This document shows, one piece after another, positions 3,295 through 44,798 of a stretch of DNA of 44,798 nucleotides. Both the position numbers and the translations under genes were made by a program. Origin of the DNA: Escherichia phage SECphi18. The stretch's first letter is position 1. Each line of letters starts with the position of its first letter. The stretch is taken from sequence record LT960609, one strand, 5' to 3'. The notes beneath the pieces were generated by a model. It worked only from the letters and a program-made list of their open reading frames with translations, searched no databases and was not told the DNA's origin.

Positions 3295-3323
3295 TTGCAC
3301 CCACCCTGGCACCCTGCTATATT
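3295..3323 (+). promoter_or_regulatory. Sigma70-like promoter overlapping two ATTGGTTGCA motif copies
   Basis: -35 TTGCAC (inside motif copy), 17-nt spacer, -10 TATATT (start of second copy); about 30 nt upstream of the 3352 ATG. Confidence 0.5.
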
Positions 3324-3351
3324 GGTTGCACACCAACATGAGGACTGAACA

Positions 3352-3642
3352 ATGAAAAAATTAATCTGGAATTACGCAATGGCCCTGGCGAAGCTGGTCG
3401 AAGTGAAACAAACAAACGGCAGCGCACCAGAGGCGCGCCTGGTCGCTCCGGCCTGGCATGCGATCATGAACGCGACCGCGGGCCTGAAAGACCCCGAACC
3501 GCTGCGCATGGCTATCCGGGTCTTCGCGATGGCGTTTGCCCGTGAGCGCCTGGCCTATCGCTTCGGTATCGGTGAGACGGCAGCGACAAACGTCGCCCGG
3601 ATTAAAGCCCAGCGCGAACTATTTGCCCAGCTTGCGAAATAA
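3352..3642 (+). CDS. Hypothetical early protein
   Basis: 96 aa ORF; RBS tgaggac upstream of ATG. Confidence 0.5.
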   Translation: MKKLIWNYAMALAKLVEVKQTNGSAPEARLVAPAWHAIMNATAGLKDPEPLRMAIRVFAMAFARERLAYRFGIGETAATNVARIKAQRELFAQLAK

Positions 3643-4048: not shown

Positions 4049-4606
4049 ATGAAATTACTATTCCGCCGTAAAGCAGATGGCCGTATTCTGAAGCCGATCC
4101 AGACCCTGGATTCCTACGTCCGCCTGCAAAACGCGGCAGGCAATCGGGTGTGGCGGGCGCCGAAACACACGCTGCCGCAGTTCTTCGACGTACTCACTCA
4201 CGATATCGAGCGCGGAGATGTGCTGCGTGATATCCGCGACGGTAGTATGTGGATCGTTGAATATGTCGGTCTTCATGGTCTGCGTATGCAATCCCGCAAG
4301 GATGGCGTAGCAGGTATGACTTACTTCGGGCTGGTCAACTACGAGCGAGTGGGCCGAAAATACTGCCTTCGTGACCGCCAGCCGCATGAGCGCGTTGAGT
4401 TCCGCAAGTCACAGCCCGCCTACGCAACCTACGACTCCCACCAGGTGCAGGCGAGGATGAAACGCGCCGCACACGAAATCGTCAATCGCTTTGATGCCGT
4501 GACGAATGCACAGCGCCATGCGCAGGAATACGGCGTGGGGTTTATCCGTGTCGAACCAGACGGCAGCATGAATGCCATCGACCCGCGCTCGGTGATTCTG
4601 AAATGA
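4049..4606 (+). CDS. Hypothetical protein
   Basis: 185 aa ORF; RBS gaggagacagag before ATG. Confidence 0.5.
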   Translation: MKLLFRRKADGRILKPIQTLDSYVRLQNAAGNRVWRAPKHTLPQFFDVLTHDIERGDVLRDIRDGSMWIVEYVGLHGLRMQSRKDGVAGMTYFGLVNYERVGRKYCLRDRQPHERVEFRKSQPAYATYDSHQVQARMKRAAHEIVNRFDAVTNAQRHAQEYGVGFIRVEPDGSMNAIDPRSVILK

Positions 4607-4743
4607 GTGCGTCTATCCGTGATATGCTGATGCACAACCGCTTTGAGATAGGCGGTCGGGTGTTTCGCAATTACTTCGTGGCGCGTGCCTGGGCGCGCCA
4701 TATTGGCAAACCAGAGGGGGCAATACGATGCTACACGATTTAA
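4603..4743 (+). CDS. Small hypothetical protein (46 aa)
   Basis: ATG overlaps upstream stop (ATGA); clean 46-codon frame ending at TAA; below the ORF-track length cutoff. Confidence 0.25.
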   Translation: MSASIRDMLMHNRFEIGGRVFRNYFVARAWARHIGKPEGAIRCYTI

Positions 4744-5015
4744 TATATTGGTTTGGATTGGGGTGCGCGACACTCGTTGTTACGGTGCTGGCGCTGTTGG
4801 TATGGGTATTCCTGATTTGGCCCGCGGTGGAAGCTGCCAGTATTACCCGCATGACGTTTCAGATATACAAGCGCCGTGGAATCACGGAGCACCCGACCAG
4901 GTTGCGCATGTGGTGGCTATGGTATCGCGATATGATAGGGGGCCGGGTGTTCGAGGCCGTCCGATCGGAAGGGTGGGAGTGGAAAGGCGTCGGCAAGTGG
5001 TCCATTTTCGATTAA
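4728..5015 (+). CDS. Small membrane protein
   Basis: 95 aa; RBS gaggggg; hydrophobic N-terminal segment LGCATLVVTVLALLVWVFLIW. Confidence 0.45.
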   Translation: MLHDLIYWFGLGCATLVVTVLALLVWVFLIWPAVEAASITRMTFQIYKRRGITEHPTRLRMWWLWYRDMIGGRVFEAVRSEGWEWKGVGKWSIFD

Positions 5016-5032
5016 TTATGCAAGCGTGATAT

Positions 5033-5067
5033 AGTCCCAGTGAGATAAAACTTACTGGGACTTTTTT
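5033..5067 (+). terminator. Intrinsic terminator abutting the holin start codon
   Basis: agtcccag-14 nt loop-ctgggact followed by T6, then ATG at 5068. Confidence 0.5.
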
Positions 5068-5358
5068 ATGGATAAGCTAAACGAGTGGTTATTCGCCCTT
5101 GCGTGTCTTGCTGGTGGCTTCGTAGGCGCACGCATTCATGGCGAGGCAACGAAAGGGCCGCTAAACTTCGTTTTATATATCGTGGTTGGCTTCCTGTGCG
5201 CCATATTTGGTGCGCCAGCTATCGCCGAGTGGGCGGGCTTATCCGGCGAGCGCACTGTCGCCGGTTTGGGCTTCGTAACTGCAATCTTCTGGATGCCAAT
5301 AGCCGCCCGGATCAGGGAGACTATTGAGTCGTTCCGACTTCCGGGGGGCGCAAAATGA
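5068..5358 (+). CDS. Holin-like membrane protein
   Basis: 96 aa; two or three predicted TM segments; immediately upstream of the endolysin. Confidence 0.5.
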   Translation: MDKLNEWLFALACLAGGFVGARIHGEATKGPLNFVLYIVVGFLCAIFGAPAIAEWAGLSGERTVAGLGFVTAIFWMPIAARIRETIESFRLPGGAK

Positions 5359-5603
5359 TTATCTCCGTCCTGTTGTTTGTTATCATAGGGGCTTCGTCCC
5401 TGTTTAACGTGTATGCGCCGTCCGTCCGGGATGGCATTTTCGGTCGGGTGTTATATCTGTTAACGGCAATGGTCTGTCTTATCGGATTGTTGCAAACAGG
5501 AGACGTATCAGATACCACCTGGACCGCGTTAATCTGGCTGTTTGCATTGCGCACCCTGCGTAATGCTGTTTTGAATGGGGTAAAACATGCGATTCAGCGA
5601 TAA
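5355..5603 (+). CDS. Second small membrane protein (holin/antiholin-like)
   Basis: 82 aa; ATG overlaps upstream stop; hydrophobic segments. Confidence 0.4.
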   Translation: MIISVLLFVIIGASSLFNVYAPSVRDGIFGRVLYLLTAMVCLIGLLQTGDVSDTTWTALIWLFALRTLRNAVLNGVKHAIQR

Positions 5604-6078
5604 CGGTCTACGATTTACGGCAGCATGGGAGACTTTCAGCCCAGTGCCGTATTTCGCGACTAAGAAAGAGCAGGCCCGTGGCCTGTACACCTGGGGCTAT
5701 GGTCACACCGGCACTAATCCGCCGCGGAGCATTACCCGTGCGGAAGCACTGGAGCTACTCAAGCGAGACGTGGCGTATGCCGAAAACTGGGTGAACAAGT
5801 ACGCACACCCGAGCATCAATCAGGCGCAATTCGACGCGCTGGTGGACCTGGTTATCAATGCTGGTCCAGGTCCGATCATGCCGGACGACGTCGCGGGTGA
5901 TTTCGACGATGCGATCCGCCTGGGTGACTGGGCGAAGGTACGGGCTACACTGCCACAATTCCGCAAGCAAGGCGGGGTAGTGCTCAAGGGGCTTGTCCGT
6001 CGTGCAATCGGCAGACAGGCGCTATTCGATGGTAAGCAGTGGGACGTTGCCGAGAGAATCGGGCGAAACGCAGCATAA
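5587..6078 (+). CDS. Endolysin, lysozyme-like (GH24-type muramidase)
   Basis: 163 aa; N-terminal AWETFSPVPY...TWGYGHTG resembles the phage lysozyme catalytic motif. Confidence 0.65.
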   Translation: MRFSDNGLRFTAAWETFSPVPYFATKKEQARGLYTWGYGHTGTNPPRSITRAEALELLKRDVAYAENWVNKYAHPSINQAQFDALVDLVINAGPGPIMPDDVAGDFDDAIRLGDWAKVRATLPQFRKQGGVVLKGLVRRAIGRQALFDGKQWDVAERIGRNAA

Positions 6079-11341: not shown

Positions 11342-12428
11342 TCAACATTTGGCGGATCGAATGATTCGCCGTCACATCTTCACCCAGCGCCTGAGCAATG
11401 ATCAGGCGCGGAGGGTGCTGGCTATGTGGGAGAAGTTCCGGCCCGCTTTGCTAGGCAAGTTGACCGAGTTACTTGATGGCAAAAAGTCCATGAACAACAA
11501 GGCACTTACCACTCTATTAACGCAACTAGACAAGACCGTCAAAACGGAACTGCGCGCCGAGTTTAAGGCGCTGGCTGAAAGCCTTCAGGAGTTCGCCGAC
11601 ACCGAGGCTGATTATCTCACCGACACATTAACGGCAGCGATCCAGCCCGCTGTCGCCGTACCCGCTGTTGAAGTAGTTGGCGTTGTTACCGGCGCGCAGA
11701 TTGCCGCGACGGCAATGAAAAACCCGTTCCAGGGTAATACTATGATGCAATGGCCTGATTCCCTTTCCGAGTGGACCAGGACGCAGATCGGGAATCAGGT
11801 ACGCGCTGGATTCATCCAGGGCAAGCCGACGATGGAAATTATTGCGGACGTGAGGCGCGCGCTAGGCGGTCGTAGTGCGCAAGCAATCTCAAGCGTTGTT
11901 AAGTCCGCGGTCAACCACTATGCGGCGACCGCCCGCGAATTAATGGTAAAAGCTAATGACGATATTCTCGAAGGTCGCCAATGGTTGGCTACATTGGACA
12001 CTCATACTTCCCCTATGTGCCAGCTACGCGATCGCCTGTTTTATCCTGTCGACGTCACTCCCGACACCAAAGGAAAACGCGGCGGGAAAGTGGTGGCGGG
12101 ATCACAATATGGCGCTGGTCCGGGCAAGCTGCATTATTGCTGCCGTTCGACGGAGACGTGGAAAGTTAAGGGCATGGAAGATTGGCCCAGTGGTAAGCGT
12201 CCGGCACTGAAGGCTGAAGCGGGCAGATTGCTGAGTGAGCAGGTCGACGCGCAGACTGATTTCTTCTCATGGGTGCAGCGCCAGCCGCGCCATATTCTGG
12301 AGGAATTATATGGAGTGCAGCGCGCCGACCAGATTATGCGCGGCGTGAAAGTGCCGAAGATGTTCACCGATTCTGGCGAACTGATGACTATCGCACAGCT
12401 TAAAAACCGGGGGTTATGGCGTGATTAA
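11325..12428 (+). CDS. Head morphogenesis protein (Mu F / SPP1 gp7-like)
   Basis: 367 aa; overlaps portal 3' end; typical position. Confidence 0.65.
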   Translation: MAKTINQHLADRMIRRHIFTQRLSNDQARRVLAMWEKFRPALLGKLTELLDGKKSMNNKALTTLLTQLDKTVKTELRAEFKALAESLQEFADTEADYLTDTLTAAIQPAVAVPAVEVVGVVTGAQIAATAMKNPFQGNTMMQWPDSLSEWTRTQIGNQVRAGFIQGKPTMEIIADVRRALGGRSAQAISSVVKSAVNHYAATARELMVKANDDILEGRQWLATLDTHTSPMCQLRDRLFYPVDVTPDTKGKRGGKVVAGSQYGAGPGKLHYCCRSTETWKVKGMEDWPSGKRPALKAEAGRLLSEQVDAQTDFFSWVQRQPRHILEELYGVQRADQIMRGVKVPKMFTDSGELMTIAQLKNRGLWRD

Positions 12429-12729
12429 ATATGCAGCGATTGGACTGGTTATCGGTCTGGCGGTTGGATTCTGGCAGGGTGATTCCTACCGCACTGGCGT
12501 TGAGGCGAGAGCGGCGCAAGAAGCGCAAGCGAAAGCCCAACGGCAGCAAACTAAGGTTGTCGAGGGGGCCGTGCAGGCAGAACAGGCCCGCGACGTGGAA
12601 TACCGGACTATCACGAAAGAGGTTGTAAAATATGTTACGCGTCCTAACCGTCCTGATTGCCGTTTTGATGATGAGCGCGTGCGGATCAAGCAACGTGCCA
12701 TCGACGCCGCTAACCGAGTCGGTCTATAG
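12421..12729 (+). CDS. i-spanin (Rz-like)
   Basis: 102 aa; GTG start; N-terminal TM AAIGLVIGLAVGFW then charged helical region; overlaps the o-spanin in another frame. Confidence 0.5.
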   Translation: MIKYAAIGLVIGLAVGFWQGDSYRTGVEARAAQEAQAKAQRQQTKVVEGAVQAEQARDVEYRTITKEVVKYVTRPNRPDCRFDDERVRIKQRAIDAANRVGL

Positions 12730-12862
12730 ACCACCTTGCACCTTTGAGAATGCCTCGGCAGATCCAGACGAAGACTTGCTGGTTGATGTTAAAAATATGG
12801 AATGCGGGGCTAAGCTAAGGGCGCAAGTGCTGGAGTTGCAGAAAATAATTCGGGGGCCGTGA
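12632..12862 (+). CDS. o-spanin (Rz1-like outer-membrane lipoprotein)
   Basis: 76 aa; signal peptide with lipobox LMMSAC; starts inside the i-spanin gene in a different frame. Confidence 0.55.
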   Translation: MLRVLTVLIAVLMMSACGSSNVPSTPLTESVYRPPCTFENASADPDEDLLVDVKNMECGAKLRAQVLELQKIIRGP

Positions 12863-12876
12863 TGGCCCCCTTTTGT
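12852..12876. terminator. Bidirectional intrinsic terminator
   Basis: gggggcc-gtga-ggccccc followed by TTTT; lies between convergent genes. Confidence 0.6.
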
Positions 12877-13640
12877 TAGCGCGGAATACCGCAAATCTCG
12901 TTTAGTGTTTTCACGTCCAGCGCCACCGCCGTGGACTTAGGCTTGTCCGGGTAAGGAATGAACTGTTCCACTTCAGGCCACGCCTTGATCAGCTTCTTAT
13001 CGGTATTGTGCATATCCAGAACGCCGGTAACGGTTAGTTTGAACGCATCATACTTCGCACGCAACTCGCGGCGGGCCTGGTCGTTACGGTCAAGGCGCTT
13101 GCAGAAGTCGTGGTCTGACGGGTAGTCCGCGCGATCGCGAGGAAGATATATCGGCAACGCTTTCCCGTCCTCGTCCACTTCGCACACTGACGCGAGCATA
13201 ACTGTCTCGAACCCCGGAACGATATCGCCGAGATCAGGCGCGAGCTTATTCATATATTTCTCTTCCCAGTATCCGCGATGTATGCGATGTTGGCGACCGT
13301 CGCCGCTCAATGACAAGGTGCGAACATTGCCGCCTGCGTTGATTTCAAAGGTGGCGTTGTAAACGCTGCCGATACCTTTCGGGCGGTCGGTGTTGTAGCT
13401 ATACGTCGCCTTGTTGGAGTAGACGCTGACGCCGTACATCTGCGACTGGGCATCGCGGATTGCCTTGATATGCTCGCGGAGCGCTGCAAACGTGCGAATG
13501 CCTTCCGGCATACAGTCCAGCGTAATGGCGTACGCAAGGTCGCGAGAGTCCATCATGATGGATTTGGCTTCGGTCGCGATTTCGTGGCCGCGCAGGATGT
13601 TAGCCAGAATCTGGTTTTTAATGTCTTTCGTCAGTCTCAT
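12876..13640 (-). CDS. Reverse-strand moron, hypothetical protein (254 aa)
   Basis: Internal ATG (MRLTKDIK...) with RBS gagga; own promoter; no family recognised by eye; the longer ORF-track N-terminus overlaps the scaffold gene. Confidence 0.6.
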   Translation of the reverse strand: MRLTKDIKNQILANILRGHEIATEAKSIMMDSRDLAYAITLDCMPEGIRTFAALREHIKAIRDAQSQMYGVSVYSNKATYSYNTDRPKGIGSVYNATFEINAGGNVRTLSLSGDGRQHRIHRGYWEEKYMNKLAPDLGDIVPGFETVMLASVCEVDEDGKALPIYLPRDRADYPSDHDFCKRLDRNDQARRELRAKYDAFKLTVTGVLDMHNTDKKLIKAWPEVEQFIPYPDKPKSTAVALDVKTLNEICGIPR

Positions 13641-13662
13641 TTTTGTGTCCTCGTTGTTGGTG

Positions 13663-13698
13663 TGCAACCAATATATGCAACCAATACGAGGATTGCAA
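13663..13698 (-). promoter_or_regulatory. Sigma70-like promoter with two tandem operator-motif copies
   Basis: Minus strand: -35 TTGCAA, 17 nt, -10 TATATT; ATTGGTTGCA copies 13 nt apart cover the spacer and start site. Confidence 0.5.
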
Positions 13699-13788
13699 GC
13701 GAATTTTGCGATTATTTTTATCGCTGATAATATTAGAAGCGTGAAGTCGAGCGGGTGGCCCGCTCTGCCACAATCCCAGGGGGATAGC

Positions 13789-14493
13789 ATGAAACTTACT
13801 AAAGCAGAATATGACGCGTTGCCGGAAGGTATGAAGGCGCTTTTTGTTGCCGATGGCGACGGGTATAAATCAACGTTCATGACCGCAGAAGAAGTACAGG
13901 CGGAAATTAAGGGTCTGAAAGACAACAACGCGAAGCTGGTGAGCGAGAAGAAAGCAGAAGCCGAACGCCGCGCCGAAGCTGAGCGCCTTGCGAAAGAGAA
14001 AGAGGAAGCCGCCGCGCGCAAAAATGGCGACCTCGAAGCGATCGATAAGTCCTGGAAAGATAAGTTTGCGAAACACGAAGCAGACACATCGGGAAAAATC
14101 GAAGCCTACCGCAAGCAGATCCACGATCTAACCATCGGCAGTGCTGCCAAAGACCTGGCCTCGAAGCTGTTCGGTAAGAATGCTGGGATCATGCAACGCC
14201 ACGTAATGGACCGCCTGACGCTGGAAGACGGCGAAGACGGCAGCTTGAAAGTGCGTGTCTTGCAGGATGGCAAACCGTCCGCGCTGACGATGGAAGAGCT
14301 TGAAAAAGAGTTCCGTAATAACGCCGATTTTGCATCCGTCCTGGCCGGCACGCCAGCCGGCGGCGCGCCTAGCAAACCGACGCAGGTTGTCGAAGATGTG
14401 AAGTCGAAAATTACGATGGGCCATAGCTTCGGTATCACCGATCTCACCAAACAGGCCGGGGATATCATCGCTAAGATGGGCGACGACGAGTAA
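13789..14493 (+). CDS. Scaffolding protein
   Basis: 234 aa from internal ATG with RBS aggggg; charged coiled-coil-like Ala/Glu/Lys-rich; precedes the major capsid gene. Confidence 0.55.
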   Translation: MKLTKAEYDALPEGMKALFVADGDGYKSTFMTAEEVQAEIKGLKDNNAKLVSEKKAEAERRAEAERLAKEKEEAAARKNGDLEAIDKSWKDKFAKHEADTSGKIEAYRKQIHDLTIGSAAKDLASKLFGKNAGIMQRHVMDRLTLEDGEDGSLKVRVLQDGKPSALTMEELEKEFRNNADFASVLAGTPAGGAPSKPTQVVEDVKSKITMGHSFGITDLTKQAGDIIAKMGDDE

Positions 14494-32793: not shown

Positions 32794-32823
32794 ACTATAG
32801 TGCAACCAACCTATTGGTTGCAA
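32794..32823 (-). promoter_or_regulatory. Sigma70-like promoter containing a palindromic operator
   Basis: TGCAACCAA-cctA-TTGGTTGCA inverted repeat (9-bp arms); minus strand -35 TTGCAA, 18 nt, -10 TATAGT. Confidence 0.5.
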
Positions 32824-33281
32824 GTAAATTTTGCAACGTTTATTGCGTAAATTTTCGGGACCAGATCGCTGCACGCCCGACGAATTGCCGCGATGTTCTT
32901 CTCGCAATCTTCAATGATGACCAGTTCGGACACGTCCGCATAGCAGACCATTTTGAACACGGCGCACGCTTTAAACTCTGGCGGCGGGGTGTCGTCCAGC
33001 ATGTGGCGCATGAACAACCGGCCGTTCGGGAATACTTCCAGTTGCTCGGCGGTCGTGTCCCAACATTCGCGCTGCCGGTTTGTCAGATACGCGATCTCGA
33101 AGCCTTGCTCTTTGTACATGCGCAACAGCGGCAGCATATCCATGTTAAGGTCTTCGCGTACGTGCGCTTTGTGCCACTTCGCCCAAAATGTTGATTTGGT
33201 TTTTATACCCGGAACCAGGTCGGCGCGTGCATCACTCGAACCATTAATAACGCCATCAAGATCACAAATCAGTAGTTTCAT
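32811..33281 (-). CDS. HAD-superfamily hydrolase/phosphatase-like protein
   Basis: 156 aa; N-terminal LLICDLDGVI matches HAD motif I (DxDG). Confidence 0.5.
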   Translation of the reverse strand: MKLLICDLDGVINGSSDARADLVPGIKTKSTFWAKWHKAHVREDLNMDMLPLLRMYKEQGFEIAYLTNRQRECWDTTAEQLEVFPNGRLFMRHMLDDTPPPEFKACAVFKMVCYADVSELVIIEDCEKNIAAIRRACSDLVPKIYAINVAKFTCNQ

Positions 33282-33502
33282 TTTAAGCTCTCAATAAGGG
33301 TGTGTCGGGCGCTGCGCGCGGTGAAGGAGTTACACACGAAATGGCAACGCTTGGTTATGACAAGCCAGCCGGTAAGATCCAGGCCCAGGATATATTCAGG
33401 CCGTGACACGCGCTTCACGTGATCGCGGCGTGGGTCGATGTTATAGTCTCTTTGCATTTGGTATACTACCGCGGGGTCGCGGTCAACGATTAAGATATTC
33501 AT
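33278..33502 (-). CDS. Hypothetical protein
   Basis: 74 aa from internal ATG with RBS gagag; overlaps neighbours by 4 nt. Confidence 0.4.
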   Translation of the reverse strand: MNILIVDRDPAVVYQMQRDYNIDPRRDHVKRVSRPEYILGLDLTGWLVITKRCHFVCNSFTARSARHTLIESLK

Positions 33503-44033: not shown

Positions 44034-44552
44034 TTAATCTTCCAATTCGAAATAAGTTTCGACGATTTCTTTTAGCTCTTTGTGGAAGTCTTCGACGTCG
44101 TCATCTTCCAGCTTGGCGATTGATTTGATCTCGAACGACTCCAGCAGGTCGTCGAATTCGTCGTTCGCATCGTCGTCATCGCCACCGGCAATAATCGCGG
44201 CATACTGTTTGATCTCGTCGCGCATCTCCGCCAGCGGATCGGCATCTTTCTTACCTTTGCCTTTCGCCGGTGCTTTTTTAGCCTTAGCCGGTTTTTCGTC
44301 TTCGGCTTCTTCATCGTCGTCATCTTCTACGACTTCTTTTTTGGCCTTACCCTTTGCCGGCGCTTTTTTAGCCTTAGCCGGTTTTTCGTCTTCGGCTTCA
44401 TCGTCGTCATCTTCGACAACTTCTTTTTTGGCCTTAGACGGCTTCTTGTCTTCCTGCTTACCAACGGCAGCGCCAACGGTTTCATAATGCTTTGCAATGG
44501 TTTCCAGTGCTACTACGCCGCGAGTGATCAGGTTTACGATTTGCTCAAACAT
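44034..44552 (-). CDS. Acidic protein with internal ~90-bp tandem duplication
   Basis: 172 aa from internal ATG with RBS ggagat; repeated KPAKAKKAPAKGK-KEVVEDDDDE blocks. Confidence 0.5.
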   Translation of the reverse strand: MFEQIVNLITRGVVALETIAKHYETVGAAVGKQEDKKPSKAKKEVVEDDDDEAEDEKPAKAKKAPAKGKAKKEVVEDDDDEEAEDEKPAKAKKAPAKGKGKKDADPLAEMRDEIKQYAAIIAGGDDDDANDEFDDLLESFEIKSIAKLEDDDVEDFHKELKEIVETYFELED

Positions 44553-44743
44553 GGTATATCTCCGATTGGTTAAGTTTAGGTGTCGGCAGTTAACTTCGTC
44601 GGTGGCCTTAACATATTGCCAGGTTACGCGTTCTCCCGTTCGGGTAGTGGACCTGGTTATATAATCACGGTTGGGAATCCTGACACTTCGATCCGGCCCC
44701 TGCGTTGCCCCTCTCCAGTTTGCGTCCTGCATCCTGTCGACGG

Positions 44744-44798
44744 GGTGAATAATAGATTGGTTGCAGGATGGGTGTCAACAACTAATTTAAAAAAAAAA
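44744..44798. repeat. Terminal duplication, copy 2 (identical to 1-55)
   Basis: Last 55 nt equal the first 55 nt. Confidence 0.8.

Follow-up and report, generated by a model that had tools for sequence, protein, structure and literature searches.

The antisense nmad5 gene in the head module of Escherichia phage SECphi18 and its place in the Nmad5 family

The nmad5 locus and its control region

The sequence record of Escherichia phage SECphi18 (LT960609), a Dhillonvirus, was analyzed as one window of 44,798 nucleotides (nt), that is, the whole stretch of DNA under study. The first 55 nt (1-55) are identical to the last 55 nt (44744-44798), indicating that the window is a complete phage genome whose two ends overlap in the assembly. 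In the head module, where the annotated genes encode head morphogenesis, i-/o-spanin and scaffold proteins, a minus-strand gene encodes a protein of 254 amino acids, and the identity of this gene as nmad5 is near certain. The protein matches the Pfam profile PF18757 (Nmad5) with 195.6 bits (cutoff of 27; E = 1.3e-57), residues 1-253 aligning to positions 1-206 of the 206-position profile. An identical protein is present in NCBI (YP_010844185.1, "Nucleotide modification associated protein", Escherichia phage SECphi18), and the protein is also found in phrog_1965, a group of unknown function. The gene and the family have thus been named before and an orthologue has been tested genetically, which makes this an already known gene. 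The features of the locus are collected in Table 1.

The open frame of nmad5 extends mechanically from 14087 to 12876 and encodes 403 amino acids from a GTG start. The true start is the ATG at 13640 since this codon is preceded by a Shine-Dalgarno sequence and all homologues begin with M-R-L-T. The GTG-started extension would read antisense across the intergenic region and into the scaffold gene. Pairwise ratios of nonsynonymous to synonymous substitution (dN/dS) in the nmad5 frame range from 0.10 to 0.25 against four other Dhillonviruses, which argues that nmad5 is real and under purifying selection; it is a genuine gene. Its base composition is ordinary (G+C fraction of 0.53 versus 0.55 in the flanks). 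With Escherichia phage Oekolampad (Bas18) the locus shares 96% identity. A total of 157 phage records match it, almost all from Dhillonvirus, and 136 of the 157 cover at least 80% of the locus.

The only sigma-70-like site found between 12300 and 14300 lies on the minus strand ahead of nmad5, with its two hexamers separated by 17 nt. The promoter region is almost invariant across five Dhillonviruses. The 20 nt from the -10 hexamer on (TATATTGGTTGCACACCAAC) and the Shine-Dalgarno context that follows them are the same as the promoter and leader of an operon of small genes that starts at 3352. In the phages welsh and SM_W22, an extra open reading frame (ORF) of 104 or 172 amino acids, without a Pfam match, is located exactly between the conserved promoter and nmad5. 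The predicted promoter is supported by its conservation in the five Dhillonviruses, by the leader copy and by the position of these extra ORFs, which further suggests that it drives a small, expandable leftward operon and that the slot is a hotspot for additional accessory cargo.

Two copies of an 11-bp motif, TGCAACCAATA, are found in the promoter region, the second of which is degenerate in Oekolampad. Genome-wide, 13 sites with no more than one mismatch are present where 0.72 are expected, and none of 100 shuffled sequences reaches 13; phage Oekolampad displays the same enrichment. The sites are intergenic and are located in promoter-like regions of both early operons (at the head of the leftward replication operon and in the rightward small-gene operon) as well as upstream of the lateral tail-fiber gene. 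They are arranged as tandem pairs (spacings of 13, 17 and 31 bp) with one inverted pair near 32801-32823. The position of the motif relative to the promoter hexamers varies between sites, a geometry that fits an operator for some factor better than a promoter element, and TGCAACCAATA is regarded here as a putative operator.

At the other end, the converging o-spanin gene and nmad5 share a GC-only hairpin of about -17 kcal/mol on either strand, which is invariant in the five genomes and carries the o-spanin stop codon in its loop. Its U-tract is canonical when read on the plus strand (UUUUGUU), that of the minus strand (GAAUUAUUUU) being weaker. In the plus-strand direction this structure has the form of a canonical intrinsic terminator amid the string of late structural genes, and no plus-strand sigma-70-like promoter was found ahead of the scaffold and capsid genes in the 12300-14300 interval. 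A second GC stem-loop, which lacks a U-tract and is nearly invariant in the five Dhillonviruses, is located just upstream of the ribosome-binding site of the scaffold gene.

The first-pass annotation of this DNA, made by a model from the letters alone, had described a 254-amino-acid antisense gene between the head morphogenesis/spanin genes and the scaffold gene, and its coordinates, length and neighbors all agree with those given here. It had also assigned the gene a promoter of its own with two copies of an operator motif and a shared bidirectional terminator. Both motif copies, the conserved promoter, the genome-wide enrichment of the motif and the hairpin bear this out at the level of the sequence, the minus-strand U-tract being the weaker of the two. 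Its description of the function as unrecognisable was wrong at the family level, as the profile hidden Markov model (HMM) search that it proposed returned the full-length Nmad5 match and the protein was already annotated for SECphi18.

Table 1. Features of the nmad5 locus and related positions (SECphi18 coordinates unless stated otherwise)
Feature	Position	Strand	Basis or remark
nmad5 coding sequence, 254 amino acids and stop, PF18757 Nmad5	12876..13640	minus	ORF, Pfam match, dN/dS
Shine-Dalgarno sequence GAGGA, 7 nt upstream of ATG	13648..13652	minus	Sequence; conserved in Dhillonviruses
-10 hexamer TATATT	13670..13675	minus	Invariant in five genomes
-35 hexamer TTGCAA, its own reverse complement	13693..13698	minus	Conserved
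20-nt block TATATTGGTTGCACACCAAC	13656..13675	minus	Same as 3318-3337 (plus), promoter/leader of the 3352 operon
Motif copy 1, TGCAACCAATA on the plus strand	13663..13673	none	Overlaps -10 and start region of the minus-strand promoter
Motif copy 2	13676..13686	none	Promoter spacer; 13 bp start to start from copy 1
TGCAACCAATA sites	12, 2916, 3289, 3320, 3839, 13663, 13676, 29774, 32812, 34468, 34485, 37427, 44755		At most one mismatch
GC-only 7-bp hairpin GGGGGCC-5 nt-GGCCCCC	12852..12870	both	Candidate bidirectional intrinsic terminator
Extra ORF of phage welsh	1782-2096 of the examined welsh locus	minus	Before nmad5
Extra ORF of phage SM_W22	1785-2303 of the examined SM_W22 locus	minus	Before nmad5
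GC stem-loop GAGCGGG-TGG-CCCGCTC	13749-13765		Upstream of scaffold ribosome-binding site
In-frame ATG 80 codons ahead of the nmad5 start	13878-13880	minus	Antisense within the scaffold gene, beyond the promoter
i-/o-spanin genes	12421-12862		In the head module
Holin/endolysin genes	5068-6078
74-amino-acid ORF	33278-33502	minus	Between Dam-like methyltransferase and phosphatase
232-amino-acid first gene of the leftward replication operon	44034-44732

The Nmad5 family and its genomic settings

The Nmad5 family was reportedly defined by Iyer et al. in 2013. An exhaustive profile search (E of 1e-3 or lower) places the family at 872 clusters at 50% identity. The best 150 of these 872 hits are all shorter than 260 amino acids, mostly 170-250, and are standalone proteins with no longer fusion proteins among them. 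The SECphi18 protein (254 amino acids) exceeds the family median of 206 owing to an extra central segment of the Dhillonvirus protein.

Conservation was assessed from an alignment of 144 non-redundant members of the family. The conserved positions are R2 (R or K in 95%), L3, T/N4, G104, G113, P167, T213 and L217 as well as W221, P222, E223 (E or D in 96%), P229, L246 and N247. The signature residues R2, L3, T4, T213, K216, L217, W221, P222, E223, L246 and N247, each 84-99% conserved, are all present in the SECphi18 protein. The conserved elements are an N-terminal R-L-T strand, a C-terminal T-x-x-K-L-x-x-x-W-P-E helix and an L-N motif, with a middle region that varies in both sequence and length. 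Within Dhillonvirus, most of the variation falls in two stretches, residues 41-135 and 160-175, with hardly any change at residues 1-20 and 181-254. Identity among Dhillonviruses is 83-96% for Nmad5 versus 95-100% for the adjacent scaffold protein of the same phages, which shows that nmad5 evolves faster than its neighbor. The residue K216 is invariant in 36 Dhillonvirus sequences ("TDKKLIKAW" in SECphi18); across the family alignment this position is K, R or Q in about 90% of the members, and E is not among the five commonest residues.

The product is predicted to be a near-neutral, soluble alpha/beta protein of about 29 kDa. An AlphaFold model built from a 36-sequence alignment has a predicted local distance difference test (pLDDT) score of 81 (54 in a run with 8 sequences). 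Sequence and profile searches of the PDB gave only chance L23 hits and no solved structural relative. Neither PADLOC nor NCBIfam gave a hit for the product, and no sequence or fold link was found to characterized defense or anti-defense families. There was no hit to a nucleic-acid-binding fold, and neither the net charge nor the isoelectric point suggests a DNA mimic or a DNA binder. No family member with a demonstrated activity was found in the literature.

The neighborhoods of nmad5 in other phages were sampled by hand from 13 loci, and the context proteins are all full-length Pfam Nmad5 members. In Yuavirus LKO4 (M6-like), Nmad5 lies within a thymidine-hypermodification cassette (PMC9476957), between genes for a pyridoxal phosphate enzyme and a nucleoside triphosphate hydrolase on one side and a hydroxymethylase gene on the other, upstream of PolA; the name of the family evidently derives from this context. 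Metagenomic relatives adjoin genes for deoxycytidine monophosphate (dCMP) deaminase, a YfbR-like nucleotidase and exonuclease, and some members neighbor DNA methyltransferase genes. In Guernseyvirinae-like phages, Nmad5 is encoded by the second gene after a divergent helix-turn-helix/promoter region, ahead of the exonuclease, SSB (single-stranded DNA-binding protein), PolA and SNF2 genes. In lambdoid phages (mEp235, Stx1/Stx2), the gene comes within the pL operon directly after N (and Nun) and precedes cIII, kil and the recombination genes. In Vibrio phage 1.094.O, a full-length Nmad5 (175 bits, 4557-5276 of the examined locus) is found in a block of myovirus tail genes, flanked by a large protein with transmembrane helices and a DNA-circulation protein, and is a second case of a member embedded in a structural module.

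The setting of nmad5 in SECphi18 can be compared with that in two sister phages that possess a Dhillonvirus-like head module, eiAU (Eiauvirus) and Serratia phage Susuwatari. In both, the head-morphogenesis gene is followed directly by the scaffold gene after 87-116 bp, with neither a spanin nor a reverse gene between them, and Nmad5 is encoded downstream of the primase-helicase gene among small early genes, before the lysis genes. The empty site indicates that the segment of about 1.36 kb with the spanin genes and nmad5 entered the head module as an insertion specific to Dhillonvirus. The nmad5 gene may have brought along, or later acquired, a copy of the promoter and leader of the operon that houses it in the sister phages, and it has probably moved from within the same type of genome and not from outside. 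The SECphi18 spanin genes are found about 6.3 kb downstream of the holin/endolysin genes and, as spanins are absent at this position in eiAU and Susuwatari, appear to have come with the same insertion.

Genetics of nmad5 and its candidate functions

The nmad5 gene has been studied in the Dhillonviruses PhiSMA8 and PhiSMS22 by Yamashita et al. (Commun Biol 2025; PMC11846954). In both phages, mutants that arose independently and escape the Tmn defense carry the nmad5 substitution K216E, which is K296E by the numbering of the longer PhiSMS22 annotation. Sensitivity to Tmn returns when the change is reverted, and phages engineered to carry K216E are resistant. A PhiSMS22 deletion mutant of nmad5 is viable, but deletion does not lead to escape from Tmn; the gene could not be cloned, apparently owing to toxicity (PMC11846954). 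The in-frame ATG in Table 1, which lies exactly 80 codons ahead of the nmad5 start, accounts for the difference between the K296 and K216 numbering, and the 334-amino-acid PhiSMS22 annotation is probably an over-extension that could bear on the design of the published deletion. Truncated copies of 87-109 amino acids that are more than 90% identical to nmad5 (P0070, P0071, P0073, P0074 and P0083) are found on Dhillonvirus contigs that are nearly complete (44-46 kb), a pattern that could come either from a dispensable gene being disrupted now and then or from sequencing errors.

Other phage determinants were checked as possible identities of nmad5. It is not Ksap1 (the trigger of KpAvs2 from SECphi18), nor is it the RAZR, Borvo or retron-Eco8 determinant. 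The 74-amino-acid ORF in Table 1 fits the published Ksap1, which activates Klebsiella Avs2. The first gene of the leftward replication operon was considered as a paralogue of Nmad5 and is not one.

The nmad5 locus is most probably a dispensable, non-structural accessory unit that is co-regulated with early genes, and it is near certain that its product is non-structural. A host sigma-70-type promoter would direct leftward transcription through a short leader and Shine-Dalgarno sequence into the ORF. Two copies of the genus-wide motif overlap the -10 and start region and would place the promoter under the control of a motif-binding factor, and transcription would end at the hairpin common to nmad5 and the spanin genes that converge on it. 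The unit would be expressed with the early genes and antisense to the late head operon. Early expression is most likely because the -10 hexamer, leader and Shine-Dalgarno sequence are duplicates of those in the operon of small genes that lies downstream of the primase-helicase gene, the place of nmad5 in eiAU and Susuwatari. The suggestion in the first-pass annotation that the gene is a moron holds for its promoter and terminator unit and for the empty site in the sister phages, but not for its distribution, which is not sporadic, or for its base composition. The accompanying suggestion of early accessory cargo for exclusion, anti-defense or host takeover agrees with a non-structural accessory gene whose leader is copied from a presumed-early operon and whose orthologue is dispensable, toxic and linked to Tmn (PMC11846954); its early timing is the inferred part, and an exclusion or anti-defense activity of the wild-type protein is not known.

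With regard to how Nmad5 works, the reading that is tentatively preferred, at slightly less than an even chance, is that Nmad5 is an accessory factor that acts by binding and not by catalysis. The conserved surface formed by the N and C termini, including K216, would contact a partner of host or phage origin where DNA metabolism meets host immunity, with specificity adjusted by the variable middle. The K216E substitution would be a neomorphic or altered-binding change. Such a model would explain the toxicity upon cloning, the escape of K216E from the Tmn nucleoside triphosphatase (NTPase) and the absence of escape upon deletion. A binding-type architecture is suggested by the standalone nature of the protein, the absence of a fused enzymatic domain, the conserved termini, the variable middle and the fast evolution.

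Two other readings of Nmad5 are each unlikely, though not so much so as to be set aside. The family name and Yamashita et al. assume that Nmad5 is an enzyme or an obligatory cofactor of nucleotide or DNA modification, in which case Tmn would react to how the phage DNA is modified. The hypermodification cassette of LKO4 (PMC9476957), the dCMP deaminase, nucleotidase, exonuclease and methyltransferase genes that adjoin other members, and the retention of a small conserved polar set that includes E223 and N247 speak for such a role. However, SECphi18 and Oekolampad lack genes for a hydroxymethylase, DNA kinase and aGPT-Pplase and possess only distant Dam- and Dcm-like methyltransferases, and the lambdoid carriers of Nmad5 are likewise without such a cassette. 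Dhillonviruses are also comparatively sensitive to type I and type II restriction, unlike the modified Queuovirinae (PMC8594841), and the different phenotypes of the deletion and of K216E are a poor fit to the simple loss of an enzyme (PMC11846954). The label of a DNA modification enzyme comes from gene neighborhood and nothing else; that neighborhood is absent from SECphi18, and the label is weak there. A similarly doubtful reading is that Nmad5 is an accessory of replication or recombination (e.g., a loader, organizer or end-protection factor) with no direct role in immunity, the escape from Tmn arising indirectly through replication intermediates. It would suit the frequent position of Nmad5 at the head of operons with a PD-(D/E)XK/DUF2800 exonuclease, Enc34/gp2.5-like SSB, PolA and SNF2 helicase, its place upstream of the recombination genes in lambdoid phages and the description of RIIB, the T2 trigger of Tmn, as replisome associated (PMC13001434). 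In Dhillonvirus, however, nmad5 is uncoupled from the replication operon, is dispensable (PMC11846954) and is found truncated in near-complete contigs, and the neutral isoelectric point and the lack of a nucleic-acid-binding fold hit do not favor this role. A fast-evolving central domain would also be unusual for a core replication factor.

It is considerably less probable that Nmad5 is the pattern that Tmn senses and that K216E merely abolishes recognition. The same residue was changed in independent escapers of two phages and reversion restores sensitivity (PMC11846954), K216 belongs to the most conserved surface motif, and Tmn is known to become active when an early phage protein, T2 RIIB, binds it directly, with single residues deciding activation (PMC13001434). 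The phage that lacks nmad5 is nevertheless still sensitive to Tmn (PMC11846954), so that Nmad5 cannot be the sole or a necessary trigger, and the T2 escapers include nonsense mutants of the trigger, whereas none have been reported for nmad5. A role in head assembly or in the virion, with the gene simply encoded on the opposite strand, is effectively refuted. Only the position between the head-morphogenesis and scaffold genes favors it. The orientation, the separate promoter and terminator, the early location of the family in other phages and the empty site in sister genera with the same head module all argue against it, as do the viability of the deletion mutant (PMC11846954) and the 24 proteins found in lysates of Dhillonvirus EE09, none of which has 254 amino acids (PMC10673088). 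The first-pass annotation had named a clear match to a structural protein family as an outcome that would count against an accessory role, and no such match was found in Pfam, PHROG or fold and structure searches. The structure prediction that it had also proposed yielded the model described above but no solved structural relative.

Several points weigh against the preferred account of an early, co-regulated unit whose product acts by binding. The match to the sigma-70 consensus is by itself at chance level (1 found versus 1.5 expected), the motif also occurs upstream of the late lateral tail-fiber gene (29774), and promoter similarity is the sole ground for placing nmad5 among the early genes. 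Phages with wild-type nmad5 remain sensitive to Tmn (PMC11846954), and no partner of Nmad5 is known. The structure is a prediction from 36 sequences (pLDDT of 81), and the conserved polar set (R2, T/N4, T213, E223 and N247) together with W221 could equally form a catalytic or ligand-binding pocket.

A broader form of the binding model may also be proposed, speculatively, and as a whole it is unlikely to be correct. Nmad5 proteins would be a large group of structurally unprecedented early phage factors in which a conserved core (the RLT strand and the TxxKLxxxWPE/LN surface) is combined with a hypervariable central specificity domain and whose targets lie in host immunity or takeover. A single core substitution such as K216E would redirect these proteins to defense NTPases like Tmn, the modification label would be an artifact of neighborhood, and the Dhillonvirus unit would be a relocated counter-defense cassette that recruits cargo behind its promoter.

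New to this analysis are the size and standalone nature of the Nmad5 family, its early and DNA-metabolism contexts in other phages, the Dhillonvirus-specific insertion and the duplicated promoter and leader of an early operon. Bacterial defense systems are routinely tested with SECphi18 and its relatives, and nmad5 is one of few phage loci with a gain-of-function escape from a membrane NTPase defense. A self-contained and probably early unit, a precisely mapped start and a family name that the Dhillonvirus context does not support are all useful for the design of experiments. The family, with at least 872 clusters at 50% identity, occurs among lambdoid prophages, including Stx prophages, and is without a solved structure; identifying a partner or an activity would annotate thousands of phage genes. 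The remaining interest lies in the mechanism of this very large, structurally unsolved family and in its unusual gain-of-function link to Tmn.

Comparison with known systems

The closest counterpart is the nmad5 gene of PhiSMA8 and PhiSMS22 (PMC11846954), an orthologue at the same locus beside the capsid genes in which K216 is conserved. The SECphi18 gene has the length of that in PhiSMA8 and differs from the longer PhiSMS22 annotation, and the genetics come from those two phages, not from SECphi18 itself. In its relation to Tmn, Nmad5 resembles T2 RIIB and the anti-Tmn protein ORF35 of Dhillonvirus in that single residues decide the outcome (PMC13001434, PMC11846954). It is unlike them in that it is not necessary for the activation of Tmn and the wild-type protein is not an inhibitor.

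The Nmad5 of Yuavirus and other M6-like phages belongs to the same family: it matches the HMM over its full length and shares the conserved terminal motifs. In SECphi18, however, the gene is found without the cassette, encodes the extra central segment, is located in the head module and would be transcribed alone from its own predicted promoter. The lambdoid members (mEp235 gp37, 243 bits; Stx1/Stx2) are of the same family as well and occupy an early, dispensable-looking position before the recombination genes. Their identity to the SECphi18 protein is about 33% and is confined to the C-terminal third by BLAST, and the lambdoid gene is part of a long antiterminated operon in contrast to the solo unit of SECphi18. 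The slot after N in the lambdoid pL operon is one that we take to correspond in position to the ral/sieB region of lambda.

Classical phage morons differ from the nmad5 unit, which is a fixed feature of the genus, does not stand out in base composition and is carried by a virulent phage, so that expression from a prophage does not apply. Like them, however, nmad5 forms a unit of promoter, gene and terminator between head genes, is absent from that site in sister genera and occupies a slot that takes further cargo.

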